From a virus, in the IMG/VR virus record IMGVR_UViG_3300045988_004930: DNA of 5,581 bases; one strand, 5' to 3'. The notes below the pieces were generated by a model. The model did no database searches, was not told the origin of the DNA, and saw only the letters and a program-made list of their open reading frames with translations. Made by a program: the position numbers and the translations under genes. This document shows positions 1,172 to 5,581 of this stretch, one piece after another (the stretch's first letter is position 1; each line of letters begins with the position of its first letter).

Positions 1172-1235
1172 AGTTTTTCGTTATTGTTATCCTAAAATAG
1201 CAATAATATAACGTAACAACGACAAAAATAAGAAT

Positions 1236-1270
1236 CCTCAGCTGAGAGTGTCAGCTGAGGCCTCAGCTGA
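1236..1270 (+). repeat. Three copies of the palindromic 8-mer TCAGCTGA (1238-1245, 1251-1258, 1263-1270) forming mutually exclusive hairpins
   Basis: cctcagctga-gagtg-tcagctgagg-cctcagctga. 1236-1245 pairs perfectly with 1251-1260 (10 bp, 5-nt loop). Alternatively 1251-1258 pairs with 1263-1270 (8 bp, loop ggcc). Each unit contains CAGCTG. Confidence 0.85.
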
Positions 1271-1283
1271 AGAAAGGGGGAAA

Positions 1284-1313
1284 GCCCGGGGCAATACCCC
1301 GGGCTATTTTATT
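1284..1313 (+). terminator. Candidate intrinsic terminator or mRNA-stabilising hairpin downstream of VP1
   Basis: gcccgggg (1284-1291) / caata loop / ccccgggc (1297-1304) is a perfect 8-bp all-GC stem, followed by the T-rich tail tattttatt. It lies after the capsid stop, as with the leaky hairpin terminators of phiX174-type phages. Confidence 0.55.
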
Positions 1314-2120
1314 ATGGGATTAGCAGCAATCGGCAGCGCGCTACTCGGAATCGGCAAACAACTACTTCCAACGATCGCCGGAGGATTCATAAACAAATTC
1401 ATAGGCGGAAACCTGATGGAGAGCAACGGGGGGAGCAGTCAGCACAACGAAAGCACAAGCCAGGGAGGCGGCCAAAGCAGCAGCGCCAGCGGCGTAAACC
1501 GAGAACAGAACCTACAAGACTGGAACAGCATGCTAAGTGCAATTCAAGGCAATATGCAAAGCCAACAGAAGTTTAACCGTCGAAGCATGTTCGAACAGAT
1601 GGGCTATAACACCATGGCGGCAATCACTCAGGGTGTATATAACCAAATAAGCAACAACGCAGCAATGTCCTACAACAGCGCACAAGCAGCCAAAAACAGA
1701 GCTTGGCAAGAGCAAATGAGCAATACATCTTATCAGCGAGCTGTGGAAGACATGCGAAAAGCCGGCATCAACCCTATCTTAGCGTATCAGCAGGGCGGAG
1801 CAAGCACTCCGGGAGGTGCACAGGCTACCATCAGCGGCGCGAGCATGGGTCTCCCAAGCAGTAGTGCGGCAACAGCAAGCGCTCTCGGAGTAAGCCAAAA
1901 CCACAACAACACATGGAGCAAAAGCGAAAGCAACTGGTACAACGCAGCACAAGCGGTTGGAGACGCTACAAGCTGGTCGCACACAAGCGCAGACAAAGCG
2001 TTAAAGGCGTTCGAAAACGTCCTGGGCCAGCTGGGAAGCCTCACAAACAACAATTCCAAAGACAGATCAACGAAAGACAAAGACGGCTTTGGAGGAAGCC
2101 AAGGAGGAAAATTTAAATAA
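1314..2120 (+). CDS. VP2 minor capsid / DNA pilot protein (268 aa)
   Basis: Hydrophobic N-terminus MGLAAIGSALLGIGKQLLPTIAGGF, a G/S/Q/N-rich low-complexity body, and the conserved gokushovirus VP2-type segment SYQRAVEDMRKAGINPILAY. The ORF-track start at 1248 is GTG and lies inside the hairpin cluster. ATG 1314 is the first ATG and follows the hairpins. Stop TAA at 2118-2120. Confidence 0.82.
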   Translation: MGLAAIGSALLGIGKQLLPTIAGGFINKFIGGNLMESNGGSSQHNESTSQGGGQSSSASGVNREQNLQDWNSMLSAIQGNMQSQQKFNRRSMFEQMGYNTMAAITQGVYNQISNNAAMSYNSAQAAKNRAWQEQMSNTSYQRAVEDMRKAGINPILAYQQGGASTPGGAQATISGASMGLPSSSAATASALGVSQNHNNTWSKSESNWYNAAQAVGDATSWSHTSADKALKAFENVLGQLGSLTNNNSKDRSTKDKDGFGGSQGGKFK

Positions 2121-3139
2121 TGGGGTGTAACAAACCGTTAATCCGGTTTTATGTACCTCACGATAGAGAGGCGAGTGGGCGAGTGTACTCACTCGCTTCT
2201 TTTAACAAGATTCATAAAACCAAAATGAAGTATGAAGACCTGATGTACCGTAAAGATGTAATGATGATACCGTGTGGACAATGCACAGGATGCAAACTAC
2301 GCAAACGCAAAGACTGGGCAACACGAATGGAGCTGGAAGCATACGGCCACAACAAAGAAAGCATCTGGTTCATCACACTGACCTATGATGACAACCATGT
2401 GCCAACACAGGACACGGAAACAGGGGAAATCTTCAAGGGAGGCGTGAATGTATGGAGAGACGCCTCAGAGCGTCCTAGAACGGTGCAAACTTTAAGCGTG
2501 GAGGATGTCCAGTTATTCATGAAAAGGCTTAGAAAGGCCGTCAGCGAACCTCTCAGGTACTTTCTGGCAGGAGAGTACGGGGACAACACCTCAAGACCAC
2601 ACTATCACATGATATTGTACGGATGGAATCCAGACGACTTAAAGCCGATTCATAGGCTGTCAAGGTTTGGACACTACACGAGCGATAAACTGGTCAAAGT
2701 CTGGGGACAAGGAACAGTTGACATAGCTCAAGCAACGCCAGAAACGTATAACTACGTAGCTGGATATGTGACCAAGAAGCTGTACGGAAACGACAGAGAC
2801 AAGTATAAGAAAATGGGACTCATGCCGCCATTCTGCGTAATGAGCCGAAAGCCAGGACTCGGAGACGAATGGTTCCAAAAGAACCAAGAGAGGCTATGGC
2901 AACTTGGATACATCCAGCTGACAAACGGCAAGAGAGCAGCCATTCCAGAATATTACTGGCGAAAGCTGGAAGCTGAAAATCCTGAAAAGGCGTGGAGAAT
3001 CAAGCAGTATCGACAAGAGAAAGCCATTGCGTCCCTAATCGAAAGAAACATGGAAACTGACAAACGGTATGCCGAACAAATGGCCGATAAAGAAGCAATC
3101 ATGAAGAAGAAGATGTCCAAAGCAAAGGGCGTTTTTTAG
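2120..3139 (+). CDS. VP4 replication initiation protein (phiX174 gpA-like HUH rolling-circle endonuclease, 339 aa)
   Basis: Motif I FITLTYDD. HUH motif RPHYHMILYG (HYH codons at 2600-2608). Two-tyrosine motif YNYVAGYVTKK (2747-2779, YxxxY as in phiX174 A protein). N-terminal IPCGQCTGCKLRKRKDW cysteine cluster. SD aaggagga at 2101-2108. The ATG overlaps the VP2 stop (TAATG). Confidence 0.95.
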   Translation: MGCNKPLIRFYVPHDREASGRVYSLASFNKIHKTKMKYEDLMYRKDVMMIPCGQCTGCKLRKRKDWATRMELEAYGHNKESIWFITLTYDDNHVPTQDTETGEIFKGGVNVWRDASERPRTVQTLSVEDVQLFMKRLRKAVSEPLRYFLAGEYGDNTSRPHYHMILYGWNPDDLKPIHRLSRFGHYTSDKLVKVWGQGTVDIAQATPETYNYVAGYVTKKLYGNDRDKYKKMGLMPPFCVMSRKPGLGDEWFQKNQERLWQLGYIQLTNGKRAAIPEYYWRKLEAENPEKAWRIKQYRQEKAIASLIERNMETDKRYAEQMADKEAIMKKKMSKAKGVF

Positions 3140-3148
3140 CTCTGGTGT

Positions 3149-3197
3149 CACTCAGCCAAGTAACTATCAAGTATATATACTTGGCTGAGTGTTTTTT
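3149..3197 (+). terminator. Rho-independent terminator after rep
   Basis: cactcagccaagta (3149-3162) pairs perfectly with tacttggctgagtg (3178-3191). This is a 14-bp stem with a 15-nt loop (actatcaagtatata), followed by TTTTTT (3192-3197), 10 nt after the Rep stop. Confidence 0.8.
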
Positions 3198-3207
3198 AGG
3201 TTTATCA

Positions 3208-3250
3208 GCACGCGCACGCACGCGCACGTAATCGCGCACATGCGCGCGCG
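3208..3250. repeat. Alternating purine-pyrimidine CG/CA tract (Z-DNA-prone) with tandem CACGCGCACG x2 and internal inverted repeats
   Basis: Perfect R-Y alternation at 3208-3230 (23 nt) and 3233-3250 (18 nt). CACGCGCACG occurs at 3209-3218 and 3219-3228. aatcgcgc (3230-3237) is the reverse complement of gcgcgatt (3246-3253). The tract is followed by the AT-only run atttttattatattattattta. Confidence 0.85.
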
Positions 3251-3278
3251 ATTTTTATTATATTATTATTTACTTGTT

Positions 3279-3293
3279 GTAGTCGTAGTAGTA
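3279..3293. repeat. Short trinucleotide repeat (GTA)5 with one variant unit, preceded by a (TTA)-rich tract at 3251-3272
   Basis: gta gtc gta gta gta read directly at 3279-3293. Confidence 0.8.
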
Positions 3294-3298
3294 GGGAG

Positions 3299-3474
3299 TG
3301 TTGAAATGTTGAATACTATAAATTTTTATCCTTGGAACGATATTTTGTGATTAATTTTGATGTTGATAATTTTGTGGAAAACTTGTTAAATTGTTGAAAG
3401 TGTAGCAATATGCACAAAACCATTTGTGCAACTTTTTGTGGAAAACCTGTTGAAAGTGTTGAAAGTGTTGAAAA
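3299..3474 (+). repeat. Iteron-like array: eight same-orientation TGTTGAAA-type 8/9-mers plus a duplicated 18-mer TTTTGTGGAAAAC(T/C)TGTT
   Basis: TGTTGAAA 3299, TGTTGAAT 3307, TGTTGATA 3361, TGTTAAAT 3384, TGTTGAAAG 3392, then a perfect tandem TGTTGAAAG TGTTGAAAG TGTTGAAAA at 3448-3474. The 18-mer occurs at 3370-3387 and 3434-3451 (17/18 identical, 64 bp apart). Confidence 0.9.
3411..3430. promoter_or_regulatory. Perfect palindrome TGCACAAA-acca-TTTGTGCA (candidate operator, recombinase core or DNA hairpin)
   Basis: The 8-bp arms are exact reverse complements around a 4-nt spacer. It sits between the two 18-mer copies. An extra half-site, ATGCACAAAA, recurs at 3597-3606, just upstream of the -35 box at 3612. 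Confidence 0.6.
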
Positions 3475-3483
3475 AGCAATTAA

Positions 3484-3633
3484 GGCCGTCCGGCGAGCGA
3501 AACCGGAAAGTCACGTCATGCTCTTCGTACGGCGCACCGCGCCTAGCGCATGACCTTTTAGATGAACGGAGATGCAAAACAATTCGATTGGGAAAAATGC
3601 ACAAAAGAGGCTTGACGAGCCTCTTTTTTTTTT
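3484..3633 (+). ncRNA. Candidate small structured RNA (or ssDNA complementary-strand origin): GC-rich hairpin block plus intrinsic terminator
   Basis: 3484-3555 is about two-thirds G+C (48/72) inside AT-rich flanks. Hairpin A is tccgg 3489-3493 / ccgga 3503-3507. Hairpin B has an outer stem gtcatgc 3515-3521 / gcatgac 3548-3554 and a nested stem ggcgc 3531-3535 / gcgcc 3539-3543. The terminator hairpin is at 3603-3627, followed by T10. There is no credible ORF and the upstream promoter is only weak (TTGTTA 3383-3388, 17 nt, CAATAT 3406-3411). This call is a hypothesis. Confidence 0.25.
3603..3633 (+). terminator. Strong rho-independent terminator (possibly bidirectional)
   Basis: aaaagaggct (3603-3612) pairs perfectly with agcctctttt (3618-3627) around the 5-nt loop tgacg. 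The T run extends to 10 T (3624-3633). The upstream A-tract gives a U-tract on the opposite strand too. Confidence 0.8.
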
Positions 3634-3640
3634 ATATACT
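3612..3640 (+). promoter_or_regulatory. Near-consensus sigma70-type promoter for the small-gene/VP3/VP1 operon
   Basis: -35 TTGACG (3612-3617, 5/6), exactly 17-nt spacer, -10 TATACT (3635-3640, 5/6). The predicted transcription start is near 3647. The next SD-preceded gene starts at 3827. Confidence 0.55.
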
Positions 3641-3826
3641 AAAGGCAGTTAAACAGCTCAGAAGTACATTTAACGAATTCCATTTTTACAAAAATAACTT
3701 TACGAAAGAGGTGAATTGCTCTGACCATCCAAAAAATCAAAACGCTGTTTAACAACATCCAGAAAATCCTTGCAATGCTGGACAAAATCTACCATGCCGT
3801 AACAAACAACGGACAGGAGACTTAAC

Positions 3827-4057
3827 ATGATGGAGACCAAACCGTGGAATGTAAGAGATCAGACCGACGAGAACCTTATGCAGGAGTTGACGAAAATCTA
3901 CAAAGCGATAGACGCCGCATACAGTATGATTCGAAAGGCCGCAACAATCGAAGACGCAAAGTATTATATTGACCTTGCGTTCCGAAAAAAAGCACTCGCC
4001 AGCAACATTGAGGTGGAAATCCTCAGAAGGGAAATCAACCATGGCAAAGAGGAGTAA
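3827..4057 (+). CDS. Hypothetical small protein, 76 aa, predicted helical. First gene of the post-IGR operon.
   Basis: ATG 3827 is preceded by SD aggag (3815-3819, 7-nt spacer). The ORF is uninterrupted and its 3' end overlaps the next gene by 17 nt. I recognise no family. Confidence 0.6.
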   Translation: MMETKPWNVRDQTDENLMQELTKIYKAIDAAYSMIRKAATIEDAKYYIDLAFRKKALASNIEVEILRREINHGKEE

Positions 4058-4160
4058 AGTACGCAAGTCGAAAGACGCAAAAATCTACAACAAGACCGCA
4101 CGCAAAACCAAGGCTATTAACCTTGGCAGCGGCGCAATGAGAGGAGGCATCCGACTGTGA
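4041..4160 (+). CDS. Small basic DNA-binding / packaging protein (J/VP8-like, 39 aa)
   Basis: MAKRSKVRKSKDAKIYNKTARKTKAINLGSGAMRGGIRL is extremely K/R-rich and has the C-terminal MRGGIRL-type ending that I recall from small DNA-binding proteins of gokushovirus-like genomes. The ORF-track start at 3969 is TTG without an SD, so ATG 4041 is preferred. Confidence 0.68.
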   Translation: MAKRSKVRKSKDAKIYNKTARKTKAINLGSGAMRGGIRL

Positions 4161-4183
4161 GCGCAGTATACGCAGGAGTAACA

Positions 4184-4255
4184 ATGGCATGCCTCGCAGC
4201 AGGCTTTGTCTTCATCATCTTCTCAATCGACATCATCAAAAACTGGTTTAAGTAA
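4184..4255 (+). CDS. Unannotated micro-ORF: 23-aa hydrophobic peptide MACLAAGFVFIIFSIDIIKNWFK (candidate membrane or lysis peptide)
   Basis: ATG 4184 has SD aggag (4174-4178) 5 nt upstream. Stop TAA 4253-4255 is embedded in the SD (taaggaga) of the next gene. It fills what would otherwise be a 105-nt gap in a tightly packed operon. It falls below the length cutoff of the supplied ORF track. Confidence 0.45.
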   Translation: MACLAAGFVFIIFSIDIIKNWFK

Positions 4256-4265
4256 GGAGACAAAC

Positions 4266-4502
4266 ATGAACGTATACGGAATTTTCGATAAATGCGTGAT
4301 GGGTTATATCACCATCTTCACCGAACGTGACGACAAAGTAGCCGAACGCAATTTCAGAATCGCGCTGACCGACGAGCGAAACATCATGAGCAAAACTCCA
4401 AGCGATTATCGGCTGGTGCGTCTGGCAAAATTCGACGAGAAAACGGGCCTGTTTGAGAATGAAAAGGAGAACATCTTCGATGGCGTATCGCTCAGTAAGT
4501 AA
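4266..4502 (+). CDS. Small conserved Microviridae nonstructural protein (78 aa, possibly the VP5/protein C analogue)
   Basis: ATG 4266 has SD aaggaga (4254-4260). The sequence MNVYGIFDKCVMGYITIFTERDDKVAERNFRIAL...PSDYRLVRLAKFDEKTGLF matches the pattern of a small protein I recall as recurrent in gut microviruses (YxIxDxK...ND..A.R.F....PEDY.L..IG.FD..TG). The ORF-track start at 4206 is TTG and would run through the micro-ORF. Confidence 0.72.
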   Translation: MNVYGIFDKCVMGYITIFTERDDKVAERNFRIALTDERNIMSKTPSDYRLVRLAKFDEKTGLFENEKENIFDGVSLSK

Positions 4503-4959
4503 CTTCAGGGAGACCGCAACAGCAAAGGCCACCGAAGCCGGAGAGACCGTGAGGCGCACATACCTCTGGGAACTCAACGAAAAAGGCGAAAAGGTGCTGA
4601 CGCTTGACCAGGTCATCGACCAGCAGGCGGAAATCGACAGCTATCTGGAAGAGACCAAGCTAGAAAACATCATCCGACGGGCATCCATCGACCCTGACCT
4701 TGCGGCCAGACTGGTACCGGACATAGGCAATGGGCTCCAAGACGCAACCGAGATGCCAGAAAACCTGATGCAGCTTCAGAACATCATGCTGCGGGCCGAG
4801 CAAATCTGGGATGAAATCCCGAAGGAAATCAAGCTCAAATTTGACAATGACATCGATAAATTCGTAGCAAGCTTCGGCACTGTCGACTGGGCAAAAAATC
4901 TGGGCATTTATCAGGAAAAGCCGCCTGAAGAGCCTAAAAAGGAGGAAGCCACTGAATGA
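4480..4959 (+). CDS. VP3 internal scaffolding protein (159 aa)
   Basis: The C-terminal segment RAEQIWDEIPKEIKLKFDNDIDKFV matches the conserved VP3 motif style (F..LP.EIR..F.NDP..F), with an acidic tail. ATG 4480 has SD aggag (4465-4469, 10-nt spacer). The ORF-track start at 4453 is TTG. Stop TGA 4957-4959 overlaps the VP1 ATG (ATGA). Confidence 0.8.
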   Translation: MAYRSVSNFRETATAKATEAGETVRRTYLWELNEKGEKVLTLDQVIDQQAEIDSYLEETKLENIIRRASIDPDLAARLVPDIGNGLQDATEMPENLMQLQNIMLRAEQIWDEIPKEIKLKFDNDIDKFVASFGTVDWAKNLGIYQEKPPEEPKKEEATE

Positions 4960-5581
4960 ACAGAAACAAAGACGCGGGGTTTAATCAGGTTCCGAGACTG
5001 GACATTACGCGAAGTCGCTTCAAACGGCGGCAGGACGTCAAGCTAACCATGAACGCGGGCCAGCTTATTCCGTTCTACGTGGATGAAGTGCTCCCGGGTG
5101 ATACCTTCAGCATCGACCAAGCAGCAATTATCCGAATGACAACTCCTATCTTCCCGGTTATGGACAACTGCCACATGGATATTTACTACTTCAACGTACC
5201 GTGTCGTATCATCTGGGACCACTTCAAACGGTTTATGGGCGAAAACGATGCTGGGCCGTGGACACAGACTCAGGAGTACACCATTCCGCAGGTCAAAGTG
5301 ACCGGAACACCAGAAAAACCGGCACCTTATGAGGGCAGCATCATGGACTACATGGGCATTCCTACCAAGGTGAGCAAAGGAGCTGATACTGCATTCAGCG
5401 TAAATGCATTACCATTCAGAGCCTACGCTATGATTTGGCAGGAGTGGTTCCGCGACCAGAACGTGGACAATCCGGCAATCAACAGCACCACAGACGCAAC
5501 CGTAAACTATACGGATGATGAAACAAAGGGCATGGACGCAACAACGCCTAACCTTGAGTACATCCTTCAGAACGCATACAC
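4956..5581 (+). CDS. Major capsid protein VP1, N-terminal part (open at the window end, continues at base 100 of the circle)
   Basis: Hand translation gives MNRNKDAGFNQVPRLDITRSRFKRRQDVKLTMNAGQLIPFYVDEVLPGDTFSIDQAAIIRMTTPIFPVMDNCHMDIYYFNVPCRIIWDHFKRFMGEN..., with no stop through 5581. This is the classic Microviridae VP1 N-terminus. SD aaggagg at 4939-4945. It is absent from the ORF track because it has no stop inside the window. Confidence 0.93.
   Translation, partial: MNRNKDAGFNQVPRLDITRSRFKRRQDVKLTMNAGQLIPFYVDEVLPGDTFSIDQAAIIRMTTPIFPVMDNCHMDIYYFNVPCRIIWDHFKRFMGENDAGPWTQTQEYTIPQVKVTGTPEKPAPYEGSIMDYMGIPTKVSKGADTAFSVNALPFRAYAMIWQEWFRDQNVDNPAINSTTDATVNYTDDETKGMDATTPNLEYILQNAY
5483..5581. repeat. 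Terminal redundancy, right copy (identical to 1-99)
   Basis: 99/99 identity to 1-99, read directly. Confidence 0.95.

Follow-up and report, generated by a model that had tools for sequence, protein, structure and literature searches.

The stretch of viral DNA considered here (IMG/VR record IMGVR_UViG_3300045988_004930; 5,581 nucleotides (nt), hereafter the window) is a circular gokushovirus genome with a unit of 5482 nt, positions 1–99 being repeated at 5483–5581, and it carries, between the gene for a basic J-like protein and VP5, a 32-codon gene that we refer to as the micro-gene. Comparison of this junction across related genomes identifies the micro-gene as a genuine accessory gene for a membrane micro-protein, which belongs to one gokushovirus lineage and is translationally coupled into the late operon. 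The best overall explanation, to which we give a probability of about one half, is that the product is an accessory membrane peptide serving as a late membrane-permeabilizing or lysis-helping effector. The setting for this proposal is that gokushoviruses have no assigned lysis gene unless a peptidase has been acquired (PMC7062461, PMC3394797, PMC9431446, PMC11499846). An earlier sequence-only reading of the window had started from the same premise, with which the literature agrees (PMC7062461; PMC9431446): these viruses have no peptidoglycan-synthesis inhibitor (PMC7062461), and the lysis protein of Chp1 is entered as 'Unknown' (PMC9431446, Table 3).

The comparison set comprised 72 genomes, namely the window, nine GenBank relatives, and 62 IMG/VR relatives found through VP5, in each of which the stop of the J-like gene and the start of VP5 were located. 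An open reading frame (ORF) lies between the two genes in 42 of them, and its frame always runs on from the codon overlapping the J-like stop. In the window this codon is GTG 4157, in the context CTGTGA (c4155 t g4157 t g a4160); across the set the junction reads CTGTGA in 58 genomes, TTATGA in 12, and CTATGA and CTTTGA in one each, the overlapping codon being GTG, ATG, or TTG in 72/72 and, among the 42 carriers, GTG in 40, ATG in one, and TTG in one. All 72 genomes also have a GAGG(A/G)GG-like Shine–Dalgarno (SD) sequence, with the first glycine codon reading GGA or GGG in 70. The sequence-only reading had begun the gene further downstream, and most of what it described can be read directly in the DNA: an ATG at 4184–4186, an AGGAG at 4174–4178 that precedes it by 5 nt, a TAA at 4253–4255, the intervening peptide MACLAAGFVFIIFSIDIIKNWFK, and the fusion of the stop with the SD sequence of the next gene (TAAGGAGA, 4253–4260). 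The start itself was misassigned, lying 27 nt too far downstream of the conserved GTG 4157. The proposed initiation codon is codon 10 of the micro-gene, and in the 23 genomes with the 32-residue form it is ATG in 17, ACG in five, and GTG in one; an SD-like motif precedes it in only 5/23, and some 38-residue forms (L003, L030) have no in-frame ATG before codon 26. Because this ATG and its SD motif are not conserved and the overlapping start is kept, the conserved gene is 4157–4255, to which the internal ATG 4184 with its AGGAG may add a 23-residue isoform in this genome. The same correction applies to the statement that the ORF exactly fills the gap in the operon: 105 nt do separate the J-like stop (4160) from the VP5 ATG, but the ORF that begins at ATG 4184 covers only 72 nt, and it is only 4157–4255 that fills the gap. 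At the other end, the junction of the stop with the VP5 SD sequence reads TAAGGAG in 20, TGAGGAG in two, and TAAAGAGG in one of the 23 genomes with the 32-residue form. The 38-residue form has its stop within an ATGA overlap with the VP5 ATG, and where its tail begins with W-R, the W-R-K codons TGG AGG AAA (TGGAGGAAA) supply the VP5 SD sequence.

Maintenance of the reading frame is evidence for protein coding. All but one of the 42 carrier copies are intact, and their ORF lengths (87, 99, 102, 117, and 129 nt) are all multiples of three, with the spacer past the stop varying by 1–3 nt. The pooled Nei–Gojobori ratio of nonsynonymous to synonymous divergence (pN/pS) in the micro-gene frame is 0.41 for the 32-residue set and 0.46 for the 38-residue set, as against 0.82–1.78 in the other two plus-strand frames and 0.58–1.11 in the three minus-strand frames. 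Counting each distinct variant once, an excess of synonymous changes appears in the micro-gene frame only (41% against 20% expected, p = 4.5e-5; 33% against 19%, p = 2e-3). The pS of the micro-gene, 0.35–0.40, is equal to that of the flanking genes, and therefore no extra constraint at the nucleotide level is needed to produce the pattern. The frame conservation and pN/pS on which the sequence-only reading had proposed to be judged thus came out in its favor, with 41/42 copies intact and the synonymous excess restricted to this frame. Chance offers a second line of argument, in that among 20,000 shuffles of the gap a GTG-started ORF of at least 28 codons with a Kyte–Doolittle 19-residue mean of at least 1.6 arose in 0.05–0.1%; conservation in relatives is a stronger argument for a real gene than these odds. 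On this comparative evidence, the micro-gene very probably gives rise to a real, translated membrane peptide.

The peptide is strongly hydrophobic in every form in which it occurs. The Kyte–Doolittle 19-residue mean, for which the classical membrane threshold is 1.6, is 2.28 in the window and 1.86–2.57 over all variants, and all variants have a favorable Wimley–White octanol sum. The N-terminal side is uncharged (+1 in one variant), and the C-terminal side is net positive in most variants, about a third having a charge of 0 or −1 there. With the family alignment as input, AlphaFold2 predicts one unbroken helix over residues 3–31 at a mean pLDDT of 93.7, and no proline occurs in the 42 genomic variants or in the 39 database homologues inspected. 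Among 37 sequences, I26, K28, and W30 are invariant and A11, A15, F17, I24, and D25 are at least 90% conserved, and the pattern I-[DN]-I-[IV]-K-x-W is found alike in the 32-residue form and in the 38-residue form, of which MNIMIAVGTGATIIAMCSAAFALIAMGIDIIKNWRKSK is an example. The small residues [G/S]7-A11-A15 would share one face of the helix, where they may provide a packing surface for self-association or for a host membrane protein. Frame conservation, pN/pS, hydrophobicity, and the AlphaFold2 model together bear out the earlier description of a small but genuine gene, tied to the translation signals of the operon, whose product is hydrophobic and forms a single predicted helix; purifying selection, looser than on the neighboring genes, keeps its frame, its hydrophobicity, and its C-terminal motif. 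A lipoprotein signal was considered and rejected, as T-M-A-C is not a canonical lipobox [LVI][ASTVI][GAS]C and the cysteine is replaced by phenylalanine or alanine in relatives. No other conserved membrane-grade ORF was found on the plus strand in any frame of 58 near-complete genomes, apart from an artefact at 3189–3350 (+). That 53-residue hydrophobic 'ORF' (…FLLYYYLLVVVVVVGSVEML…), present in 52/58 genomes and with the look of two helices, was considered as a rival holin-like gene and was rejected as a product of conserved non-coding DNA: nucleotide conservation exceeds 90% without any wobble pattern, the frame is broken by stops in several genomes, and its indels are not multiples of three.

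The micro-peptide has a family of its own. Carriers encode 32 residues in 23 genomes and 38 residues in 15, with single genomes encoding 33, 42, and 28 residues and one copy frameshifted; the 28-residue form has lost 30 nt in frame between the two copies of a repeat inside the gene, and the frameshifted copy (L016) has a 1-nt insertion in a G-rich run, which makes it either a pseudogene or an error of assembly. Among 5.8 billion proteins, a profile search returned 39 clusters of 32–45 residues (best E = 8e-18), whose contigs are of microvirus size, about 5–6 kb, or shorter fragments, except one of 12 kb, and an exhaustive search with the profile through 1.84 billion protein representatives returned five members of the family and one protein of 2829 residues (E = 1e-6), a match that we take to be spurious and due to low complexity. 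The product of 4157–4255 is identical to DAW91177.1, a 32-residue 'MAG TPA: hypothetical protein [Microviridae sp.]', and further homologues are DAG79969.1 and its relatives together with 38-residue clusters from Logan, ENA, and JGI assemblies. The claim that such a gene is invisible to ORF callers therefore holds for the nine close-relative GenBank phage records, in which it is unannotated, but not in general, since the exact 32-residue product has been deposited. The DAW91177.1-like records carry no function, membrane-topology note, or comparative analysis. As far as sequence comparison can show, the only demonstrable family is that of these 32–38-residue hypothetical proteins, found at the same J–VP5 position in 42/42 carriers, and it is an orphan family confined to this gokushovirus clade. 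An origin by duplication of the 5′ end of VP5, which was suggested by shared first codons and by a chimeric ORF (P0035), was rejected, local alignments of each micro-ORF with its own VP5 5′ region being no better than those of shuffled sequences (median z 0.6). Separately, one 2108-nt contig (L134, ENA ERZ19243459) contains at 350–840 a 134-nt tandem duplication that takes in the 3′ portion of the micro-gene together with the 5′ portion of VP5; its junction lies at the microhomology ATCACAA, and it creates, ahead of an intact VP5, a chimeric 45-residue ORF consisting of VP5 residues 1–18 and the C-terminal 27 residues of the micro-peptide; with a coverage of 3.7x, this duplication may be an assembly artefact.

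The course of events that we propose would begin with ribosomes that finish the J-like gene and reinitiate at GTG 4157. The peptide would then enter the cytoplasmic membrane of the host, its N-terminus probably lying outside and its Lys/Trp C-terminus at the cytoplasmic face, and could pack on itself or on a host membrane protein through [G/S]7-A11-A15. As a late effector it would permeabilize the membrane or aid lysis in the manner of the small lysis proteins of single-stranded RNA (ssRNA) phages, either through depolarization, which would set host autolysins to work, or through a block in a membrane step of cell-wall precursor supply, and it would improve or time the release of the virus rather than act as the sole lysis factor. 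A role in lysis or egress, which is argued by analogy, is the likeliest single role but is in our view possible rather than probable. In its favor are the lack of an assigned lysis gene in gokushoviruses, the absence of an M15 peptidase from 63 genomes of the clade although sister clades have one, the position of the micro-gene as the only conserved membrane-grade ORF of the clade, and the parallel with ssRNA phages. A stronger version of the proposal would make the peptide the first single-gene lysis or viroporin-type effector of a gokushovirus, 32–38 residues long, born de novo at the J–VP5 junction, and killing or permeabilizing the host by oligomerizing in the membrane or blocking a membrane step of cell-wall precursor supply; its host would possibly belong to the class Clostridia, and non-carriers would rely on a second, hidden factor. 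We consider this version somewhat unlikely.

Among characterized systems, the lysis protein E of the Bullavirinae is the most obvious point of comparison. The E protein of phiX174 inhibits MraY with the help of SlyD, is 91 residues long, is overprinted in gene D, depends on a helix proline, Pro21, and carries a long, basic domain at its C-terminus. The micro-peptide resembles it as a small, late-expressed microvirus protein whose active part would be a single membrane helix, but differs in being 32–38 residues long, encoded by a stand-alone gene that overlaps its neighbor by only 4 nt, and free of proline. A Pfam-A scan of the 32- and 38-residue forms with E up to 1 matched no family, and PHROGs gave matches at chance level only (E = 0.03–0.24); as there is no Pfam match at all, there is none to the E-protein family, and the micro-peptide is not a member of it. 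Three features of phiX174 E are thus lacking, namely homology, the essential proline of the helix, and overprinting in the external scaffolding gene. The lysis proteins of ssRNA phages are closer in kind, as they are typically small single-helix peptides, orphan in sequence, that have repeatedly arisen de novo and vary in presence and position (PMC13114773, PMC10610835). They provide the best functional analogy for the micro-peptide, which at 32–42 residues with one predicted membrane helix has the size and topology of a single-gene lysis protein, but they come from another virus realm and genome type and show no sequence similarity to it. MS2 L-like proteins have a basic N-terminal domain and a Leu-Ser motif, both of which are absent from the micro-peptide. 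Within this group, Lys of phage M inhibits MurJ, and MS2 L is pore-forming or depolarizing.

Other small membrane proteins share fewer traits with it. The holins and pinholins of tailed phages are likewise late membrane proteins with a hydrophilic, cytoplasmic C-terminal end, but holins usually have 60–150 residues and mostly two or more membrane helices and are encoded beside an endolysin, whereas no endolysin or peptidase occurs in the clade of the window (63 genomes). The pVII and pIX proteins of filamentous phages are hydrophobic peptides of the same size, from a single-stranded DNA (ssDNA) phage, with starts that overlap the upstream stop; they are 32–33-residue minor coat proteins of a virion assembled at the membrane, whereas gokushovirus capsids assemble in the cytoplasm and the micro-gene is dispensable. 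Type I toxins such as TisB, Hok, Fst, and Ldr are also short single helices, of 20–50 residues, which depolarize the inner membrane, and they are chromosomal or plasmid-borne and controlled by antisense RNA. The micro-peptide had no NCBIfam or Pfam match to a type I toxin family, and the Rfam scan of the window gave no match in the micro-gene region, although no search was aimed at antisense RNA.

Several observations weigh against a function in virus release, and we set them out together. The micro-gene is absent from 30 of the 72 close relatives, in which VP5 starts at the same codon overlapping the J-like stop; no membrane ORF lies between the two genes at the J–VP5 junctions inspected in eight distant gokushoviruses, sampled by clade from a phage collection; and none is found at this junction in the closest prophage relative, on a long contig of a Clostridia metagenome-assembled genome (MAG; L144). 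In the distant gokushoviruses the J-like gene is coupled or adjacent to VP5, or there is no J-like gene at that place, and in Dulem virus 114 an unrelated 83-residue ORF occupies the junction. The distant gokushoviruses and the Clostridia prophage relative, all without the gene, indicate that its absence is the ancestral state. The expectation of a short hydrophobic ORF at the same position in relatives accordingly holds for 42 of the 72 and not for the remaining 30 or for the distant viruses, and the idea of a general gokushovirus feature has to be given up, the gene being confined to part of one gut clade; such a patchy distribution argues against its being the universal missing lysis gene of gokushoviruses. 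Moreover, 26 near-complete non-carriers have no micro-gene, no peptidase, and no other membrane ORF and are nonetheless abundant viruses. Because they lack any replacement membrane ORF or peptidase, the micro-gene cannot be essential for release in this clade, and the lysis factor of non-carriers is something else, perhaps a moonlighting or non-membrane factor, which is probably present in the window genome too. The comparison of genomes thus shows the micro-gene to be dispensable, which weakens the function put forward by the sequence-only reading, namely a lysis, membrane-targeting, or superinfection-exclusion factor, although by analogy that proposal is still plausible. Outside the family, searches of Pfam, PHROGs, NCBIfam, and PDB sequences with the micro-peptide found nothing significant, and as the peptide resembles neither phiX174 E nor another characterized lysis protein nor any entry of these databases, function can be argued by analogy only. 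At 0.41–0.46, the pN/pS of the micro-gene is also far more relaxed than that of the J-like gene (0.05) or VP5 (0.10–0.12), as would be expected where hydrophobic character outweighs residue identity, and some of the conservation at the C-terminus may reflect constraint on the nucleotides, because the purine-rich tail codons of the 38-residue form double as the VP5 SD sequence. Finally, if the host has a thick wall, lysis could not be brought about by a membrane peptide by itself and would need host autolysins.

The only hint of the host comes from relatives of VP1 with 42–50% identity that lie inside 36–118 kb contigs of Clostridia and Christensenella MAGs (L144, L145, L148, L149, L153) and appear to be integrated prophages, which would suit a Clostridia-class host for the lineage. 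An M15 peptidase was rejected as the lysis enzyme of the clade, as it is absent from 63/63 genomes (tblastn with the peptidase of a sister clade gave nothing better than E = 2.2) and is found in sister clades only. The sister-clade gokushoviruses in which it is present are L143 (KX513868, 2011–2403) and, at their 5′ ends, L136 and L137; the peptidase-bearing sister clades have in common with the window the J-like gene and also the conserved non-coding element described below, and they have no membrane or holin-like ORF beside the peptidase.

In a rough neighbor-joining order of VP4, 21 genomes with the 32- or 33-residue form make up one unbroken block and the 38-residue form is interspersed with non-carriers, and in a tree of the flanking DNA carriage is patchy; crude as these trees are, the pattern is consistent with a gene passed on stably within one subclade and repeatedly lost or recombined outside it. 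Start/stop overlaps of the form NTGA bound the cassette and would offer an easy route to gain or loss: removal of the DNA between 'GTGAA' and 'ATGAA' would turn a carrier into a non-carrier of the VNTNVYG type that is in fact observed.

The same patchiness suits the closest alternative, according to which the product is a membrane micro-protein with a role other than lysis, such as superinfection exclusion, in which related phages would be kept from entering their DNA at the membrane, or the modulation or inhibition of a host transporter, protease, or sensor. Many small membrane proteins of bacteria and phages act by exclusion or by modulating host membrane proteins, and carriage by 42 of 72 genomes suits a conditional gene for competition or host interaction better than a core release function, non-carriers evidently completing their life cycle. 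Furthermore, conservation is higher in the membrane-adjacent motif and the small-residue stripe than in most of the helix, which points to a specific partner and not to unspecific damage of the membrane. The position of the gene speaks the other way, being neither early nor of a lysogeny type: the gene belongs to the late morphogenetic operon and is coupled there to J and VP5. The window shows no sign of a temperate lifestyle, with no integrase and no match of up to three mismatches to the Escherichia coli or Bacillus subtilis dif cores, the latter a weak test, and the peptide has no homology to known exclusion proteins. We regard such a role as rather unlikely.

It is improbable, in our judgment, that the ORF is chiefly a translational device that relays or tunes ribosomes on their way from J to VP5, with a peptide of little or no function. 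The ORF does sit exactly on the coupling junction of the two genes and is easily gained or lost; VP5 of non-carriers uses the same overlapping GTG or ATG, and VP5 of carriers gains an ATG of its own together with TAAGGAG or an ATGA overlap, its SD sequence being made by the W-R-K codons of the 38-residue form. A mere relay, however, predicts a pN/pS near 1 and free composition, whereas the values seen are 0.41–0.46 with a synonymous excess in this frame only, membrane-level hydrophobicity is kept in all variants, and I26, K28, and W30 are invariant even in the 32-residue form, in which the VP5 SD sequence follows the stop. Weakest of all, and very improbable, is the notion of a non-functional insert that is open by chance through the close kinship of the genomes, for although an open frame of 28 codons by itself occurs in 21–26% of gap shuffles, two antisense frames are likewise open in most 38-residue-type genomes, the family is young and narrow, and the L016 copy is frameshifted, the substantial pS of 0.35–0.40 stands against 41/42 intact copies, every indel inside the reading frame has a length divisible by three, no other frame shows the synonymous excess, hydrophobicity is kept, and an open frame this hydrophobic has a chance frequency of about 0.1%. 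An accessory membrane peptide with a late effector role remains the reading that we prefer.

The annotated genes of the window are all on the plus strand, and their coordinates are collected in Table 1 together with the elements of the micro-gene. The nearest GenBank records are uncultured gokushoviruses of the human, pig, and monkey gut, with 80–84% nucleotide identity, and the J-like protein, whose gene has the pN/pS of 0.05 given above, is 90–100% identical in relatives.

Table 1. Coordinates of the micro-gene, its elements, and the other features of the window
Feature	Position	Strand	Remarks
Micro-gene	4157–4255	+	Between J-like gene and VP5; GTG start, TAA stop, 32 codons; product (M)SAVYAGVTMACLAAGFVFIIFSIDIIKNWFK
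AGGAGG SD sequence	4142–4147	+	9 nt before GTG 4157; made of J-like Arg-Gly-Gly codons
GTGA start/stop overlap	4157–4160	+	GTG, micro-gene start; TGA, J-like stop; translational-coupling junction
Hydrophobic core, about residues 3–24	4163–4228	+	Small-residue stripe [G/S]7-x3-A11-x3-A15
Internal AGGAG (4174–4178) and ATG 4184	4174–4186	+	Start given by the sequence-only reading; non-conserved
C-terminal motif I-D-I-I-K-N-W	4226–4246	+	Family pattern I-[DN]-I-[IV]-K-x-W; adjoins membrane core
TAAGGAGA stop/SD fusion	4253–4260	+	Followed by 5-nt spacer CAAAC and VP5 ATG at 4266
VP1	4956, wraps to 1171	+	ORF position and annotation of relatives
VP2	1314–2120	+	ORF position and annotation of relatives
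VP4	2120–3139	+	Pfam/PHROGs: REP_ORF2-G2P
Non-coding region	3140–3826 (about 690 nt)		
76-residue ORF	3827–4057	+	ORF position and annotation of relatives
J-like gene, basic, 39 residues	4041–4160	+	phrog_10695, E = 6e-9; analogous to phiX174 J and Chlamydia-phage ORF8
VP5, 78 residues	4266–4502	+	Pfam PF20577 Phage_ORF5, E = 1e-17; phrog_1670, E = 7e-23
VP3	4480–4959	+	Pfam/PHROGs: Chlamy_scaf

A second small conserved gene, of about 36 residues (IALTIQKIKTLFNNIQKILAMLDKIYHAVTNNGQET), lies at 3715–3826 (+) and ends where the 76-residue gene begins. It is homologous to ATG-started ORFs of 32–38 residues in distant gokushoviruses, such as MALISIKDVKQAIRIMMQILEKLDEIYHALHDSINEKE in KX513868; in the clade of the window its first codon is ATT, ATC, ACT, or ACC, its sole in-frame ATG is codon 21, and the sole conserved start candidate is an in-frame CTG at codon 3, located 7–8 nt past a GAGGTG/AGGAGG SD sequence, so that a non-canonical start is possible.

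The non-coding region holds several further elements. Over 59 genomes, the segment 3260–3480 is more than 90% conserved at the nucleotide level, which exceeds the conservation of coding DNA, and it recurs at 77–88% identity in gokushoviruses that are otherwise unalignable; it contains two DnaA-box-like motifs TGTGGA(A/T)AA, three GTTGAAAGTGT repeats, and a hairpin at 3411–3430, has no Rfam match, and probably acts as an origin of replication or in regulation. A strong terminator-like hairpin at 3603–3627 (AAAAGAGGCT…AGCCTCTTTT, then a T-run) lies immediately before the late operon and overlaps a promoter-like TTGACG-17-TATACT at 3612–3640; there is a GC-rich palindrome at 3230–3253, and a further hairpin at about 3145–3190, past VP4, was read by eye. 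Between VP1 and VP2, the stretch 1235–1312 (+) is a repeat-rich hairpin region, cctcagctgag…cctcagctga followed by gcccggggcaataccccgggc, which gave the sole match of the Rfam scan of the window, a sub-threshold one, to anti-hemB, of 24 bits where the gathering score is 49.5; it is probably just a terminator-like structure.

Gokushoviruses are among the most abundant ssDNA phages of guts and oceans, and the mechanism of their release is an acknowledged gap. What began as a guess from raw sequence is now a defined candidate with coordinates, a true start, natural variants (forms of 32, 38, and 28 residues as well as deletion genomes), and evidence of conservation. It illustrates how a start/stop overlap that was already present let a small gene come and go in a genome of 5.5 kb, in a virus family that is said to hold almost no accessory genes (PMC9239249). 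Should the peptide indeed act on a step at the cell wall or the membrane, it would offer a new lead for a 'protein antibiotic'; should it not, it would still be a rare accessory micro-protein in this virus family.

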